Sequence record: NC_054902.1
Reading direction: 5' to 3' (one strand)
Source: Enterobacteria phage Aplg8
Length of the DNA stretch: 64,000 nt
Notes under the pieces: generated by a model
The model's database searches: none
Seen by the model: the letters and a program-made list of their open reading frames with translations, nothing else
Told to the model about the DNA's origin: nothing
Made by a program: the position numbers and the translations under genes
Part shown: positions 2,953-56,253 of the stretch, piece after piece
Layout: each line of letters begins with the position of its first letter
Numbering within the stretch: the stretch's first letter is position 1

Positions 2953-3138
2953 TTAAAACGTATTCACATAAGCTATTAATTCATTTTCTTTCTTATCAAA
3001 CCGATCAGCAAATTCTTCCTGCTGTTCGGGAGATAGCGGGCCGTATTCATCATAAAAGGTGTTTGCTTCTGCATGCTCATCTAGAAGTTCATGGATAAGC
3101 TCAAACAATTTATCTTTTTGTTCTTTGCTTAGGCTCAC
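2953..3138 (-). CDS. hypothetical acidic protein (61 aa)
   Basis: ORF track; tightly packed upstream of tk. Confidence 0.55.
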   Translation of the reverse strand: MSLSKEQKDKLFELIHELLDEHAEANTFYDEYGPLSPEQQEEFADRFDKKENELIAYVNTF

Positions 3139-37486: not shown

Positions 37487-40627
<3,141 letters not shown>

Positions 40628-40655: not shown

Positions 40656-42635
40656 ATGACTTTATTATCTCCGGGCATTGAGCTCAAAGAAACTACGGTT
40701 CAAAGCACCGTGGTTAATAACTCTACTGGTACAGCAGCTTTGGCCGGTAAATTCCAGTGGGGTCCTGCTTTTCAAATTAAACAGGTTACAAATGAAGTAG
40801 ATTTAGTTAATACTTTTGGTCAACCTACAGCTGAAACTGCTGACTATTTTATGTCTGCAATGAATTTCTTACAATACGGAAATGATTTGCGAGTTGTGCG
40901 TGCTGTCGATAGAGATACCGCTAAAAACTCATCTCCGATTGCCGGTAATATTGAATACACTATTTCTACCCCAGGTAGTAACTACGCGGTTGGAGATAAA
41001 ATCACTGTTAAGTATGTTTCAGAAGATGTTGAAACAGAAGGTAAAATTACCGAAGTAGATGCTGATGGAAAAATTAAGAAAATTAATATTCCTACCGCAA
41101 AAATTATCGCTAAAGCGAAAGAAGTAGGCGAATATCCAGCATTAGGTTCTAACTGGACTGCGGAAATTTCTTCGTCTTCCTCTGGTTTAGCTGCAGTAAT
41201 AACTCTTGGAAAAATTATTACTGATTCTGGTATTTTATTAGCTGAAATTGAAAATGCCGAAGCTGCTATGACAGCTGTTGACTTTCAAGCAAATCTCGAA
41301 AAATATGGAATTCCAGGAGTAGTAGCTCTTTATCCAGGCGAGTTGGGCGATAAAATCGAAATTGAAATCGTATCTAAAGCAGACTACGCAAAAGGTGCTT
41401 CTGCATTACTCCCAATTTATCCAGGTGGCGGAACACGCGCATCTACTGCCAAAGCAGTGTTTGGATATGGACCACAAACTGATTCACAATACGCTATTAT
41501 AGTTCGTCGCAATGATGCTATTGTTCAAAGCGTTGTTCTTTCAACGAAGCGTGGTGAAAAAGATATTTACGATAGTAACATCTATATTGATGACTTTTTC
41601 GCAAAAGGTGGTTCAGAATATATTTTCGCAACTGCACAAAACTGGCCAGAAGGCTTCTCTGGAATTTTAACTCTGTCTGGTGGTTTATCATCAAATGCTG
41701 AAGTAACAGCAGGAGATTTGATGGAAGCTTGGGACTTCTTTGCTGACCGTGAATCTGTTGACGTTCAGTTGTTTATTGCGGGTTCTTGTGCCGGTGAATC
41801 TTTAGAAACAGCATCTACTGTCCAAAAACACGTCGTTTCAATTGGGGATGCTCGCCAAGATTGCTTAGTATTGTGCTCACCACCGCGTGAAACTGTAGTT
41901 GGAATTCCTGTAACTCGTGCAGTAGATAATTTAGTTAACTGGAGAACTGCAGCAGGTTCATACACTGATAATAACTTTAATATCAGTTCAACCTACGCAG
42001 CAATTGATGGTAACTACAAGTATCAGTACGACAAATATAATGATGTGAATCGTTGGGTTCCATTAGCAGCTGATATTGCTGGTTTATGCGCAAGAACTGA
42101 TAACGTATCTCAGACTTGGATGTCTCCAGCTGGTTATAATCGTGGCCAGATTCTTAACGTTATTAAACTGGCTATTGAAACTCGCCAGGCTCAGCGCGAC
42201 CGTTTATACCAAGAAGCTATCAACCCGGTAACTGGTACAGGTGGTGATGGTTACGTATTGTATGGTGATAAAACAGCTACTTCTGTTCCTTCTCCATTTG
42301 ATCGTATTAACGTTCGTCGTCTGTTTAATATGTTGAAAACGAACATCGGACGTAGTTCAAAATATCGTTTGTTCGAATTAAACAATGCGTTTACTCGTTC
42401 ATCATTCCGCACAGAAACTGCCCAGTACTTACAGGGAATTAAAGCTCTCGGTGGAATTTATGAATATCGTGTAGTTTGCGATACAACAAATAACACTCCG
42501 TCAGTAATTGATAGAAATGAGTTTGTTGCAACATTCTACATCCAACCGGCTCGTAGTATAAATTATATCCAACTTAATTTCGTCGCAACTGCTACCGGTG
42601 CAGATTTTGATGAGTTAACTGGTCTTGCAGGTTAA
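40656..42635 (+). CDS. 18: tail sheath protein gp18
   Basis: 659 aa; synteny. Confidence 0.96.
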   Translation: MTLLSPGIELKETTVQSTVVNNSTGTAALAGKFQWGPAFQIKQVTNEVDLVNTFGQPTAETADYFMSAMNFLQYGNDLRVVRAVDRDTAKNSSPIAGNIEYTISTPGSNYAVGDKITVKYVSEDVETEGKITEVDADGKIKKINIPTAKIIAKAKEVGEYPALGSNWTAEISSSSSGLAAVITLGKIITDSGILLAEIENAEAAMTAVDFQANLEKYGIPGVVALYPGELGDKIEIEIVSKADYAKGASALLPIYPGGGTRASTAKAVFGYGPQTDSQYAIIVRRNDAIVQSVVLSTKRGEKDIYDSNIYIDDFFAKGGSEYIFATAQNWPEGFSGILTLSGGLSSNAEVTAGDLMEAWDFFADRESVDVQLFIAGSCAGESLETASTVQKHVVSIGDARQDCLVLCSPPRETVVGIPVTRAVDNLVNWRTAAGSYTDNNFNISSTYAAIDGNYKYQYDKYNDVNRWVPLAADIAGLCARTDNVSQTWMSPAGYNRGQILNVIKLAIETRQAQRDRLYQEAINPVTGTGGDGYVLYGDKTATSVPSPFDRINVRRLFNMLKTNIGRSSKYRLFELNNAFTRSSFRTETAQYLQGIKALGGIYEYRVVCDTTNNTPSVIDRNEFVATFYIQPARSINYIQLNFVATATGADFDELTGLAG

Positions 42636-42642
42636 TTGATTA

Positions 42643-42656
42643 TGGGGCTTCGGCCC
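42643..42656 (+). promoter_or_regulatory. UUCG-loop RNA hairpin after gene 18
   Basis: GGGGC-TTCG-GCCCC immediately after gene 18 stop. Confidence 0.4.
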
Positions 42657-42674
42657 CTATTCTCGAGGAAACAA

Positions 42675-43280
42675 GTGATTATTTCTAAGTTTGTTACAAT
42701 AAAACCAAGAAATCATTCAAAAATGTGGTCGACAATTCTGGGATATAAAGTATCATATCATGATACAGTATCTGTTCCAATAGAATTAATGCCAAAGAAT
42801 AGTAATAAAATAGTTGACGCTAAATGTGATTTGTGTGGTACTAAATTTAGTAGAAGCATTCAACTTTTAAATAGAACACCCACACATGCATGTAGAAAAT
42901 GTAGCATTAAACAAGTTGCTATTAAAAATTCGGAAGTTCAATCTGGAATAAGCAGACCATGGCAAAGAGGTGATAAACATCCTCGATGGACTGGCAAAAG
43001 AAAAGAGTTTGCATTATATGCTAGTAGAGTTCATTCTATAACTAAGTCAGCTAAAATAAGAAAAATCTGGTCAAAATGGCCGAATGCTGATAAAATAGGA
43101 ATGTGCGGCGTAGAAGGTGCTTATCAACTCGATCATAAAGTATCTATCAAATATGGATTTGATAATTTAATTCCGCCGGAAATTATAGCAAGTGTAAAAA
43201 ATTTAGAAATAATCACTTGGGAATCTAACCGAGAAAAGTCAAAAAGAAATAGCGTAGATCTTTGGGATTTACTAGAATGA
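42675..43280 (+). CDS. HNH homing endonuclease (free-standing), inserted between genes 18 and 19
   Basis: C-terminal HNH motif QLDHKVSIKYGFDNL...NLEIITWESNREK, CxxC...CxxC zinc finger; GTG start with GAGG SD (track start 42636 is TTG; ATG 42723 alternative). Confidence 0.75.
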   Translation: MIISKFVTIKPRNHSKMWSTILGYKVSYHDTVSVPIELMPKNSNKIVDAKCDLCGTKFSRSIQLLNRTPTHACRKCSIKQVAIKNSEVQSGISRPWQRGDKHPRWTGKRKEFALYASRVHSITKSAKIRKIWSKWPNADKIGMCGVEGAYQLDHKVSIKYGFDNLIPPEIIASVKNLEIITWESNREKSKRNSVDLWDLLE

Positions 43281-43306
43281 TTCTAAAGGCCTGTTTCGGC
43301 AGGCCA

Positions 43307-43314
43307 TATAAATA
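43307..43314 (+). promoter_or_regulatory. T4 late promoter (first of two upstream of gene 19)
   Basis: Exact TATAAATA following GGCCTG-TTTCGG-CAGGCC hairpin after HNH gene. Confidence 0.5.
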
Positions 43315-43365
43315 CACTATATCCTTAATTCTTTAATTCTATATGCCCTAGGTTAAACATAGGGA

Positions 43366-43373
43366 TATAAATA
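43366..43373 (+). promoter_or_regulatory. T4 late promoter for gene 19
   Basis: Exact TATAAATA 15 nt upstream of gene 19 ATG. Confidence 0.6.
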
Positions 43374-43387
43374 CTACAGAGGCTAAT

Positions 43388-43879
43388 ATGTTTGTAGATG
43401 ATGTAACACGAGCGTTTGAATCTGGTGATTTTGCTCGACCTAACTTATTCCAAGTAGAAATTTCTTATCTTGGACAAAATTTTACGTTTCAATGTAAAGC
43501 CACTGCTTTACCAGCTGGTATTGTAGAAAAAATTCCAGTCGGATTTATGAACCGTAAAATTAACGTAGCAGGCGATCGTACATTCGATGACTGGACTGTT
43601 ACAGTAATGAACGATGAGGCACATGATGCTCGCCAGAAGTTTGTTGATTGGCAAAGCATTGCTGCTGGGCAAGGGAACGAAATTACTGGTGGAAAACCAG
43701 CAGAGTATAAAAAGAGCGCTGTTGTTCGCCAATATGCTCGTGATGCTAAAACTGTAACAAAAGAAGTCGAAATTAAAGGCCTGTGGCCTACTAACGTGGG
43801 TGAACTTCAATTAGATTGGGATTCAAACAATGAAATCCAAACCTTTGAAGTAACTCTTGCTCTCGATTATTGGGAATAA
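43388..43879 (+). CDS. 19: tail tube protein gp19
   Basis: 163 aa; MFVDDVTRAFESGDFARPNLFQVEISYLG recognised. Confidence 0.96.
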   Translation: MFVDDVTRAFESGDFARPNLFQVEISYLGQNFTFQCKATALPAGIVEKIPVGFMNRKINVAGDRTFDDWTVTVMNDEAHDARQKFVDWQSIAAGQGNEITGGKPAEYKKSAVVRQYARDAKTVTKEVEIKGLWPTNVGELQLDWDSNNEIQTFEVTLALDYWE

Positions 43880-43911: not shown

Positions 43912-45536
<1,625 letters not shown>

Positions 45537-45537
<1 letters not shown>

Positions 45538-45782
45538 TGGAAGGTTTAATTGAAGCTATTAAATCAAACGACCTCGTAGCCGCTCGTAAATTATTTGCTG
45601 AAGCCATGGCTGCAAGAACGATTGATTTAATTAAAGAAGAAAAAATCGCTATCGCTCGTAATTTCTTAATCGAAGGTGAAGAACCTGATGACGAGGATGA
45701 TGACGAAGACGAAGACGAAGATAGTGATGATAAAGACGACAAAAAAGACAAAGACTCTGACGAAGACGAGGATGATGAATAA
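45537..45782 (+). CDS. 67: prohead core protein gp67
   Basis: 81 aa with poly-acidic C-terminal tail. Confidence 0.9.
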
Positions 45783-46207
45783 TGCTTCTGATCCCTGAAA
45801 CTCATGAATTAGTTCTCGAGAATGTCGAAGCACTTATTCCTGAAGCACAGGGTCGCTTTGACGAATTGTCTTCTGCTTTAAATAAAGACGATATAAATAC
45901 AATTGTCGAGAATATGCTTGATGATGAAACTGATTTAGCGGTTGCATTAGCTTCTATTAATGAAAATATGCCGTTAAATGAATTTATCGTTAAACATGTT
46001 TCCGCCCGTGGTGAAATTACTCGCACTAAAGACCGCAAAACGCGTGAACGTAATGCATTTCAAACCACTGGGCTGTCTAAAGCAAAACGTAGACAAATTG
46101 CTCGTAAAGCTACCAAAACGAAGATTGCCAATCCAGCAGGTCAATCTCGTGCTCAGCGTAAGCGTAAAAAAGCTCTTAAACGCCGTAAAGCATTAGGATT
46201 AAGCTAA
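45782..46207 (+). CDS. 68: prohead core protein gp68
   Basis: 141 aa; synteny. Confidence 0.9.
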
Positions 46208-49269: not shown

Positions 49270-49284
49270 TCTTTGACGATTTAA

Positions 49285-49313
49285 GGGACCTTCGGGTCCC
49301 TTTAGTTGTTTTT
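49285..49313 (+). terminator. rho-independent terminator after gene 23
   Basis: GGGACC-TTCG-GGTCCC hairpin followed by T-rich tract. Confidence 0.7.
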
Positions 49314-49317
49314 ATGG

Positions 49318-49325
49318 TATAAATA
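49318..49325 (+). promoter_or_regulatory. T4 late promoter for gene 24
   Basis: Exact TATAAATA 27 nt upstream of gene 24 ATG. Confidence 0.6.
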
Positions 49326-49352
49326 AATCATATAAACCAAAAGGAAAGCGCA

Positions 49353-54124: not shown

Positions 54125-54742
54125 ATGTACCACTTTGTATATGAAACAACAAATCTAATAAATGGTAAAAAGTATATAGGAAAACACTCTACTGATGACT
54201 TGAATGATGGTTACCTTGGTTCCGGTAAGGCAATTCAGCAGGCTATAAAGAAATATGGTGAAAACAATTTCTCTAGAACAATACTAAAAGAGTTTAAAAC
54301 TTCCGAAGAAGCGTACATGTATGAAGAAGAAATTATAACTCCTGAAATAATAAAAAGCAAAAATTATTATAATATGAAACCTGGTGGAATTGGTGGAATT
54401 GTTATGACTACAGAGGTTATAGCAAAGATGAAAGAATCTTCCGCTAAGAGATTTGAAAACTCACCGGGCACGGTATTAGGTACAACTTGTTACACTAATG
54501 GAACTAAAAATATTTTTATTAAACCTGGAGAACTTGTTCCAGAAGGATTTGTAAAAGGGATGGTTCATCCTAATAGAAAGTCCAGAAAAGGATGTAAAGT
54601 CAAACCGACTACCACAGGAACTTTTTGGGTCAATAATGGTGCAATAAATAAATTAATACAACCAGACGGTATTATTCCCGACGGATTTATTAAAGGTCGT
54701 CTCATGAAAAGAGATTCTAAAGGCAAATTTAGTAAGGCATAA
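54125..54742 (+). CDS. segE: GIY-YIG homing endonuclease SegE
   Basis: 205 aa; N-terminal GIY-YIG-type motif FVYETTNLINGKKYIGK. Confidence 0.9.
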   Translation: MYHFVYETTNLINGKKYIGKHSTDDLNDGYLGSGKAIQQAIKKYGENNFSRTILKEFKTSEEAYMYEEEIITPEIIKSKNYYNMKPGGIGGIVMTTEVIAKMKESSAKRFENSPGTVLGTTCYTNGTKNIFIKPGELVPEGFVKGMVHPNRKSRKGCKVKPTTTGTFWVNNGAINKLIQPDGIIPDGFIKGRLMKRDSKGKFSKA

Positions 54743-54744
54743 TT

Positions 54745-56253
54745 ATGGATATTAAAGTACATTTTCACGACTTCAGCCATGTACGCATCGATTGTGAAGA
54801 GAGCACGTTCCACGAATTAAGAGATTTCTTTTCGTTTGAGGCCGATGGATATAGGTTTAATCCTCGCTTCAGATATGGCAACTGGGATGGACGAATCCGT
54901 CTTTTAGATTATAATCGTCTTCTTCCATTCGGCTTAGTCGGGCAAATTAAAAAGTTCTGTGATAACTTTGGCTATAAAGCCTGGATTGACCCACAAATTA
55001 ACGAAAAAGAAGAATTATCAAGAAAAGATTTTGATGAATGGCTTTCTAAATTAGAAATCTATTCAGGAAATAAAAGAATTGAACCACACTGGTATCAAAA
55101 AGATGCAGTGTTCGAAGGATTAGTTAATCGTCGTAGAATTCTTAATCTTCCAACATCTGCAGGTAAATCTTTAATTCAAGCTTTGCTTGCGCGATATTAT
55201 TTGGAAAATTATGAAGGTAAAATTCTTATCATTGTTCCAACAACTGCTCTGACAACTCAGATGGCTGATGACTTCGTCGACTATCGTTTATTCAGTCATG
55301 CAATGATAAAGAAAATTGGCGGCGGAGCATCAAAAGATGATAAATATAAAAATGATGCACCAGTCGTTGTTGGTACATGGCAAACTGTAGTTAAACAACC
55401 GAAAGAATGGTTCTCACAGTTTGGAATGATGATGAATGATGAATGCCATCTTGCTACAGGAAAAAGTATTTCATCTATCATATCAGGTTTAAATAACTGC
55501 ATGTTCAAATTCGGTTTGTCCGGTTCATTACGTGATGGCAAAGCTAATATCATGCAGTATGTTGGAATGTTTGGTGAAATATTTAAGCCAGTAACGACTT
55601 CTAAATTAATGGAAGATGGGCAAGTAACTGAGCTAAAAATTAATAGTATTTTTCTTCGCTATCCCGATGAGTTCACTACTAAATTAAAGGGAAAAACTTA
55701 TCAAGAAGAAATAAAAATTATTACTGGGCTTAGTAAAAGAAATAAATGGATCGCTAAATTAGCTATTAAGCTTGCGCAAAAAGATGAAAACGCTTTTGTC
55801 ATGTTTAAACATGTATCACATGGTAAAGCTATTTTCGATTTAATTAAAAATGAATACGATAAAGTTTATTACGTATCAGGGGAAGTTGATACCGAAACCC
55901 GCAATATAATGAAAACCTTAGCTGAAAATGGTAAAGGAATAATTATAGTAGCTAGTTATGGTGTATTTTCTACTGGTATTTCAGTTAAAAATCTGCATCA
56001 CGTTGTTTTAGCGCACGGTGTTAAATCAAAAATCATTGTATTACAAACAATCGGTCGTGTATTACGTAAGCATGGTTCTAAGACAATAGCAACAGTCTGG
56101 GACCTCATAGATGATTGTGGTGTTAAGCCAAAATCTGCTAATACGAAAAAGAAATATGTTCATTTGAACTATCTTTTAAAACACGGCATTGATCGTATTC
56201 AGCGCTACGCAGATGAAAAATTCAATTACGTAATGAAAACAGTTAATTTATAA
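54745..56253 (+). CDS. uvsW: UvsW DNA/RNA helicase
   Basis: 502 aa; SF2 helicase motifs PTSAGKS and DECH. Confidence 0.93.
   Translation: MDIKVHFHDFSHVRIDCEESTFHELRDFFSFEADGYRFNPRFRYGNWDGRIRLLDYNRLLPFGLVGQIKKFCDNFGYKAWIDPQINEKEELSRKDFDEWLSKLEIYSGNKRIEPHWYQKDAVFEGLVNRRRILNLPTSAGKSLIQALLARYYLENYEGKILIIVPTTALTTQMADDFVDYRLFSHAMIKKIGGGASKDDKYKNDAPVVVGTWQTVVKQPKEWFSQFGMMMNDECHLATGKSISSIISGLNNCMFKFGLSGSLRDGKANIMQYVGMFGEIFKPVTTSKLMEDGQVTELKINSIFLRYPDEFTTKLKGKTYQEEIKIITGLSKRNKWIAKLAIKLAQKDENAFVMFKHVSHGKAIFDLIKNEYDKVYYVSGEVDTETRNIMKTLAENGKGIIIVASYGVFSTGISVKNLHHVVLAHGVKSKIIVLQTIGRVLRKHGSKTIATVWDLIDDCGVKPKSANTKKKYVHLNYLLKHGIDRIQRYADEKFNYVMKTVNL

Follow-up and report, generated by a model that had tools for sequence, protein, structure and literature searches.

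In phage T4 the tail sheath gene 18 and the tail tube gene 19 are separated by a spacer of 116 nt (TAA-TACGGTGCA-TTCTAAAGGCCTGTTTCGGCAGGCCATATAAATA...GATATAAATACTACAGAGGCTAATATG), whereas in Enterobacteria phage Aplg8, of which we analysed a stretch of 64,000 nucleotides (record NC_054902.1, hereafter the window), a further coding sequence lies between the two genes. The question that this locus raises is what kind of gene it is, and whether it is a stable part of the tail-gene block or a mobile element that has settled there. The gene corresponds to the one labelled ORF19.1 or gp19.1 in phage T6, a GenBank label in use since about 2010, and its product differs from the T6 protein by one residue. 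In our opinion 19.1 is a free-standing homing endonuclease gene (HEG) whose product belongs to a divergent branch, with an H-N-N motif, of the HNH (His-Me finger) nucleases, and we would put the probability of this at roughly 0.7. An original prediction, made from the letters of the window, had proposed that a free-standing endonuclease gene of the HNH type has been inserted between genes 18 and 19, and it is supported by an exact insertion, by the existence of empty alleles and by intact catalytic residues.

An exact insertion behind gene 18

The comparison with T4 that had been suggested for setting the insertion boundaries gave an exact result. The cassette is 645 bp long (42636-43280, plus strand), stands in place of the 9-nt filler TACGGTGCA of T4 and other empty sites, starts directly after the stop codon of gene 18 and ends at its own stop codon, and its flanks are otherwise collinear with T4 and the empty loci. 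From TTCTAAAGG onwards the next 208 nt past the insert (43281-43488) are identical to T4 with zero mismatches, and the T4 sequence matches through the gene 19 ATG. What follows the insert, and lies outside it, is the native T4-type spacer (43281-43387, plus strand) with a hairpin at 43288-43305, two exact TATAAATA late promoter boxes at 43307-43314 and 43366-43373, and the ribosome binding site (RBS) of gene 19. The two boxes had been correctly predicted to follow the open reading frame (ORF), but they had been taken for a duplicated late promoter; since the empty spacer of T4 already has both boxes and the same hairpin, these are native features and nothing has been duplicated. Both hairpins that were thought to bound the element do exist, with the predicted coordinates off by one, but only the one at 42644-42657 is part of the insert, and the one at 43288-43305 is native to T4.

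A query of 1045 nt, in which the 645-bp insert was flanked by 200 nt on either side, matched 653 records in the phage collection. The whole element, in the allele of the window, is present in 68 of about 500 Tequatrovirus records, and a tblastn search for proteins with at least 95% identity also gave 68 records. A second allele is found in about 50 Tequatrovirus records (66% coverage, in a locus of equal size), and in about 380 of the approximately 500 the site is empty, the span being 409 nt there as compared to 1045 nt in the window. The filler TACGGTGCA was present in all ten empty loci that were read, namely T4, T2, RB14, BYEP02, KIT03 and five contigs from IMG/VR, where the five loci recovered were all empty. 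Empty-site alleles, on which the original prediction had made its case depend, are thus common, and the gene shows the presence/absence polymorphism with exact boundaries among near-identical genomes by which HEGs of the T-even phages are recognised. Tequatrovirus-type 18-19.1-19 DNA was also seen in two records with unexpected names, PV654520.1 ('Pseudomonas phage vB_PSGBLB0006', 142 kb) and MG010123.1 ('Staphylococcus phage SAJK-IND', 32 kb), both of which are probably mislabelled or contaminated.

It could be argued that the empty sites are the derived state, and that 19.1 is an ancestral accessory gene behind gene 18, encoding a nuclease or DNA-binding protein which benefits the phage, is not mobile and has been lost repeatedly. 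The empty sites have one uniform 9-nt filler and not the varied scars of deletions, and about three quarters of the close relatives are without the gene, both of which speak against such a history. So does the second allele, which is carried by RB7, where gp18 and gp19 are each 99% identical to those of the window whereas the gp19.1 proteins share 52% identity. The leader of the RB7 gene (hairpin, Shine-Dalgarno sequence (SD), GTG and the first 15 codons or so) and its last 200 nt or so are near-identical to the window, its central part of about 350 nt is unrelated (approximately 45% identity), and the N-terminal half of its product is similar to that in Klebsiella, Shewanella and Dhakavirus phages and not to that in T6. 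To judge from the alignments, the RB7 allele is a horizontal swap of a specificity-type N-terminal module on a fixed nuclease core. The history of the gene is, from RB7, discordant with that of the flanking genes, which is another mark of T-even HEGs, and such an internal domain swap inside nearly identical flanks is not what an ancestral gene would lead us to expect.

The position of the gene is on the other hand in favour of an ancestral origin. In all nine full-length homologous loci that we inspected (RB7, VR7, KP185, Mokit, phiM12, Thanatos-2, PSD9, AS-zj and vB_EcoM_005) it stands directly after gene 18, and this place is shared by Tequatrovirus, Gaprivervirus, Dhakavirus, Jiaodavirus, Hadassahvirus and Ceceduovirus as well as by Shewanella phage Thanatos-2 and Sinorhizobium phage phiM12. 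The gene that comes after the 19.1 homologue in phiM12 is not gene 19, and this, together with the constant position after gene 18, means that the element is tied to gene 18 and not to gene 19. Each of the homologous loci has a hairpin that separates the stop codon of gene 18 from the start of the homologue, for which GTG or TTG is often used. In VR7 (2434-2500) and Mokit (2450-2500) this hairpin has an exact TATAAATA in or at its loop, and in Thanatos-2 (2963-3000) there is a GGGGCTTCGGCCCC hairpin identical to that of the window, even though the gp18 identity is only 64%.

Selection on the gene also fits an ancestral, useful function. Synonymous and nonsynonymous differences among intact T6-type alleles come in the ratios 6:1, 12:3 and 12:2, and by this measure the intact alleles are under purifying selection. 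A relative that interrupts another gene is more difficult to explain in that way. In Acinetobacter phage 133 (HM114315, 2070-4147) a 273-aa relative (Acj133p227), with 47% identity over the nuclease core, lies inside rnlA and gives, according to the GenBank annotation, the two overlapping genes rnlA-A and rnlA-B, so that rnlA of this phage is a possible genes-in-pieces RNA ligase. Taken together, we consider a repeatedly lost ancestral gene to be unlikely.

Decayed copies occur as well. Escherichia phage Pu-Krd-SF1 (PQ249395, 401-1006) has a T6-type 19.1 where codon 89 has changed from Q to stop, and it is therefore a decaying copy of the element, of which the record annotates only a CDS of 89 aa. 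Salmonella phage S16 has a protein of 106 aa (BFVD M1HDJ8) that is 62% identical to part of gp19.1, with a TM score of 0.89 over its length, and looks like a truncated remnant, whereas in the Salmonella phages STP4-a and SEA1 the copies are full-length, with about 43% identity. Purifying selection in combination with decayed copies fits the cycle of selection and subsequent decay of homing genes.

A putative divergent H-N-N nuclease

The C-terminal part of the protein carries an H-N-N (HNH-type) beta-beta-alpha-metal core (43122-43238, plus strand; Y150-Q-L-D153-H154 ... N176-L ... W182 ... N185 ... K188). Among 144 diverse members of the family D153 is kept in 142, H154 in 143, N176 in 142 and K188 in 136, and N185 in 141 of 141, and the catalytic residues are thus near-invariant and not degenerate; their degeneracy is what the original prediction had named as fatal to it. 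The spacing from N176 to N185 is 9, as in NLxxxCxxCH/N, with the third position always N, and the protein thereby has the D-H, the Asn and the helix Asn about 9 residues further on that mark the catalytic site of the HNH / His-Me finger superfamily. The fold of the superfamily is also present: in an AlphaFold2 model (pLDDT 89) a strand at 150-154, a strand at 177-181 and a helix at 182-190 make up the beta-beta-alpha-metal arrangement, and the N-terminal part forms a zinc-knuckle (beta-hairpin) plus a helix, followed by a helical linker. There are 21 viral structure neighbours in BFVD at E<=1e-3, and several of them go by HNH, homing or endonuclease-like names. Among the Pfam matches of 47 isolated nuclease domains the commonest families were HNH_4 (8 of 47) and HNH (4 of 47), all below threshold, and the HNH matches of the relatives reached E = 0.00095-0.2 at best. 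From the motif and the modelled fold it is well supported that the protein belongs to the His-Me finger superfamily, as a divergent member of H-N-N type.

The N-terminal half holds a four-cysteine zinc finger of the treble-clef/zinc-ribbon type (C51, C54, C73 and C76; 42825-42902, plus strand), which is presumed to be a DNA-binding or spacing module. It had been recognised earlier as a CxxC...CxxC pattern, and the four cysteines are indeed near-invariant: 128 of the relatives possess the N-terminal domain, and about 125 of these keep them; Pfam DUF4379 ('treble clef') gave weak matches in 13 of 31 homologues. The family is large, with 6,802 cluster representatives in word-indexed and exhaustive profile searches when the limit was E<=1e-3, and 1,663 when it was <=1e-10. 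Many members share the C-terminal 100 residues or so only, and longer relatives carry extra NUMOD3 and helix-turn-helix (HTH) modules. This is the beads-on-a-string style that has been described for homing endonucleases (PMC2988022).

Among the known systems, 19.1 resembles MobA-MobE of T4 in being free-standing, intergenic between conserved genes and in the same orientation as its neighbours, in lacking a promoter and riding on an upstream transcript, in its sporadic occurrence among close relatives and in its HNH-type core, and by analogy it is probably a nickase that acts away from its own insertion site (PMC2988022). It does however not belong to the Mob family by either similarity or architecture. 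There is no detectable sequence similarity, and a tblastn search at E<=1e-3 found 243 places in 242 records, that is a single place in all but one record, and therefore no Mob-like second locus in T4-like genomes. Mob has an N-terminal HNH and a C-terminal DNA-binding part, whereas 19.1 has its zinc finger in the N-terminus and the nuclease in the C-terminus; the H-N-N motif of 19.1 is without cysteine pairs; and 19.1 lies in the late structural-gene block, Mob among the nucleotide-metabolism genes. T4 has no ORF at the 18-19 site.

In phage Aeh1, MobE splits nrdA. A fragmentation of nrdA through a mobile element is described in PMC3045599. The family member of phage 133 is similar in splitting a host gene into two overlapping ORFs, as annotated, whereas the copy in the window is intergenic and splits nothing. 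Aeh1 mobE appears in Figure 1 of PMC2988022. The small HNH nickases Gme HNH (4h9d), GVE2 HNH (5h0o) and T5 SciA (9qgx) are 9-17% identical to 19.1. With their 90-120 aa or so they consist of one domain and lack the N-terminal zinc-finger half, and they have not been reported as site-specific mobile genes of the 18/19 site. Like seg43(25) of Aeromonas phage 25, 19.1 has a very stable hairpin before the RBS that does not sequester the RBS (PMC2988022), although seg43(25) encodes a GIY-YIG enzyme and sits in a different locus. Hef of phage U5 is likewise an unconventional free-standing T-even HEG, but kinship is excluded since Hef is Vsr-like and not of HNH type (PMC3239194).

Expression and a candidate target in gene 18

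Over this region the window shares 99-100% identity with Escherichia phage Kelasse and about 99% with T6 and Yersinia phage PST, and the gene order around the insert is that of gene 17 (38792-40624), gene 18 (40656-42635, plus strand; 98% amino-acid identity to T4 gp18), 19.1, gene 19 (43388-43879, plus strand) and gene 20, which begins at 43951. On the minus strand a serine-rich ORF of 105 aa (45488-45805) overlaps gene 20 at its 3' end; this frame is probably spurious. Since HNH proteins associated with the terminase are needed for packaging in HK97-like phages, such a role could be imagined for 19.1 too. Gene 18 does however separate it from the terminase gene, and T4 gp17 carries its own nuclease, as the T4 record also states. 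19.1 is moreover absent from T4 and about 76% of the Tequatrovirus records, and packaging is therefore independent of it. It is accordingly no conserved terminase partner of the HK97 type, and the chance that it serves the terminase is negligible.

Within the cassette the order is hairpin, SD, GTG and ORF, with no promoter of its own. The hairpin (GGGGC-UUCG-GCCCC, GGGGCUUCGGCCCC; 42644-42657, plus strand) comes just past the stop codon of gene 18, whose message it likely stabilises at the 3' end or attenuates; no intrinsic terminator was scored in the insert, as the hairpin is not followed by a run of T. The SD, read from the sequence as GAGGA (42665-42669, plus strand), is situated 5 nt before the weak GTG start of the endonuclease CDS (42675-43280, plus strand), which with its 201 aa bears out the predicted ORF of about 200 aa in the 18-19 gap and equals T6 ORF19.1/gp19.1. 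The mechanically derived ORF is longer (42636-43280, from TTG), but the homologue alignment and the PHROG 5104 profile begin at its V14 (MIISK...) and the T6 annotation uses the same start as GTG 42675, which is therefore the true one; ATG 42642 and TTG 42636 are ruled out on the same grounds. Sequestration of the RBS by RNA structure was also rejected, since the start region folds no better than shuffled sequences (z = -0.94) and the SD is largely free. A hairpin just before the RBS has been described for T-even free-standing endonucleases (PMC2988022).

The late promoter of gene 18 is TATAAATA at 40620-40627, and no further exact TATAAATA was found between 40620 and 43307, from which gene 18 is inferred to be the source of read-through transcription for the endonuclease gene. 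There is a near-consensus late-promoter box, TATAAATT, inside gene 18 (42557-42564), 111 nt upstream of the endonuclease start, which arises from synonymous variants where T4 has GCATTAAC, but it is excluded as the element's own promoter because some empty genomes also have it. Cassettes without a promoter that ride on upstream promoters are known in T4, where segC/F/G and mobA/C/D/E are examples (PMC2988022).

The place of the gene immediately upstream of the two late promoters of gene 19 could also hint at a second role, namely that a homing-type nuclease has been domesticated and excludes the tail genes of co-infecting relatives, cuts DNA of the host or of parasites, or binds DNA as a regulator of the late 18-19 region. 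Precedents are Odn in ICP1, as cited in PMC10448857, the SegB-driven amplification in T6 (PMC13096335) and the autorepression of I-TevI (PMC2988022). The sequence of 19.1 does however indicate no second function, its distribution fits that of a dispensable element, and the decayed copies are hardly what one expects of a gene in the service of the phage; we think that domestication is quite unlikely.

The best candidate for the target of 19.1 is found in the 3' end of gene 18. A hot spot of mostly synonymous polymorphism (42536-42595, plus strand), which holds TATAAATT, stands out when 11 Tequatrovirus sequences are compared, with 14 segregating sites per 40 nt. Elsewhere in the 1.2 kb upstream and 0.7 kb downstream, 0-8 sites per 40 nt are typical and the maximum is 11, and an almost invariant stretch of about 100 nt precedes the hot spot. 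As compared to T4 there are 22 mismatches in 42300-42635, 17 of which fall in 42552-42629 with only one amino-acid change there. One gene 18 haplotype is common to all four carriers of the allele in the window and another to both carriers of the second allele. The patch is thus the candidate recognition, cleavage and immunity site of the endonuclease, and gene 18 its probable target gene.

Homing could then proceed as follows. The gene would be transcribed late, as read-through from the gene 18 promoter at 40620, and be poorly translated through the hairpin and from its GTG start. In a mixed infection the zinc finger would bind the endonuclease-less allele near the 3' end of gene 18, most probably at the recoded patch 45-100 bp upstream, where the metal site of H154, N176 and N185 would make a nick or a cut. 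A nick would be the likelier of the two for a protein of about 23 kDa with a single HNH, as is the case for MobA/MobE and I-HmuI (PMC2988022). The recombination-dependent repair of T4 type would copy the cassette and the flanking gene 18 markers from the donor genome, and the synonymous changes in the patch would protect the carriers. In the family as a whole homing-like behaviour is seen in the NUMOD3 and HTH modules, the insertion into rnlA, the decayed copies and the allele-specific haplotypes beside the site.

Several observations weigh against a homing endonuclease of the HNH type. No Pfam HNH model (HNH, HNH_2-5) matches the protein of the window at E<=1, let alone at the gathering score, no model among the Pfam, NCBIfam and PDB sequence models recognises an HNH at threshold, and profile searches against PDB sequences found none. 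The third metal ligand is N instead of H, and the zinc-binding cysteines that are common in many HNH cores are not present. The predicted HNH motif therefore stands as a near-invariant DH...N...N and lacks support from Pfam at threshold, and it is because of motif, fold and sub-threshold matches, and not of curated models, that we make the call. Homologues are furthermore found behind gene 18 in very distant phages, with gp18 identity down to 35%, and this position could reflect an ancient vertical residence. Cleavage, target site and preferential inheritance are all predictions for every member of the family. Finally, the haplotype of the first allele is also found in the empty RB14 and BYEP02, and that of the second allele in the empty T2. 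As a strict marker of carriage the hot-spot haplotype is ruled out by these three genomes, and the patch is therefore not diagnostic of carriage. Haplotypes of this kind in empty genomes would be expected if conversion starts from a cut in the patch and the short tracts sometimes end before they reach the cassette, and plain recombination is also compatible with them.

One might go further and regard 19.1 as an inactive relic, with an intact ORF in the window but an enzyme that cuts nothing present in nature. The life cycles of HEGs do end in decay, relatives are known with a nonsense allele or a truncated fragment, and the candidate target of many empty genomes is already of a carrier-type haplotype. 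The catalytic and zinc-binding residues are however all intact, and with a single amino acid differing from T6 and synonymous differences far exceeding nonsynonymous ones we find it very improbable that the enzyme is dead. A functional free-standing HEG is still the explanation that we prefer.

Homing genes in the window and the meaning of 19.1

The homing-gene content of the window differs from that of T4 at more than one locus, as had been predicted, with 19.1 present and segD absent. The gap between genes 23 and 24 (49270-49352) is just 83 nt, and there is therefore no segD and, as foreseen, no segD-like ORF in it. The prediction that segE is retained is likewise borne out by a protein of 205 aa encoded at 54125-54742 (Pfam SegE_GIY-YIG, 3e-9), downstream of which there is an ORF of 502 aa (54745-56253) that is presumably uvsW, by the gene order of T4. 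A second endonuclease-like ORF was seen between genes 19 and 20 of vB_EcoM_005 (NC_055783, 4247-4828); it is annotated as HNH, its sole Pfam matches are weak ones to SegE_GIY-YIG and NUMOD3, and with it the tail/portal block of this Dhakavirus has two putative homing genes.

Copies of 19.1 have been annotated as 'hypothetical', 'head morphogenesis protein', 'type II restriction endonuclease' and, once, 'homing endonuclease'. Literature searches that covered gp19.1/ORF19.1 and endonucleases of the 18-19 interval gave nothing relevant, and we found no description of 19.1 in the T4 mobile-element review, the T4-genomes review or the 2026 study of SegB in T6. The family has thus apparently never been studied. 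It is an ordinary kind of mobile element for T4-like phages, unsurprising in principle and of moderate interest for specialists on phages and HEGs, but the T-even phages are a model system for free-standing homing endonucleases, and their catalogue rests on T4, which has no 19.1.

It is tempting, although clearly speculative, to see the 19.1 family as a long-lived endonuclease lineage that has been following the tail-sheath gene throughout the T4 superfamily, in phages as far apart as coliphages and Sinorhizobium phage phiM12, with one H-N-N core and exchanged N-terminal zinc-finger modules. The hot spot in gene 18 might then be the trace of an arms race between competing endonuclease alleles and the sites that they attack, and between T2, T4 and T6 the tail-gene block might be inherited with a bias as one unit (marker exclusion).

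If our reading of the gene is right, T6 and about a quarter of the sequenced Tequatroviruses would hold an extra, unnamed HNH-type element in their tail-gene block, and a large family that now goes under 'hypothetical', 'head morphogenesis protein' or 'type II restriction endonuclease' names would be defined. The element would also be a testable candidate for localized marker exclusion around genes 18 and 19 in crosses of T6 with T4 or T2. It changes no principle, but is a natural case of specificity domains being swapped on a fixed nuclease core.

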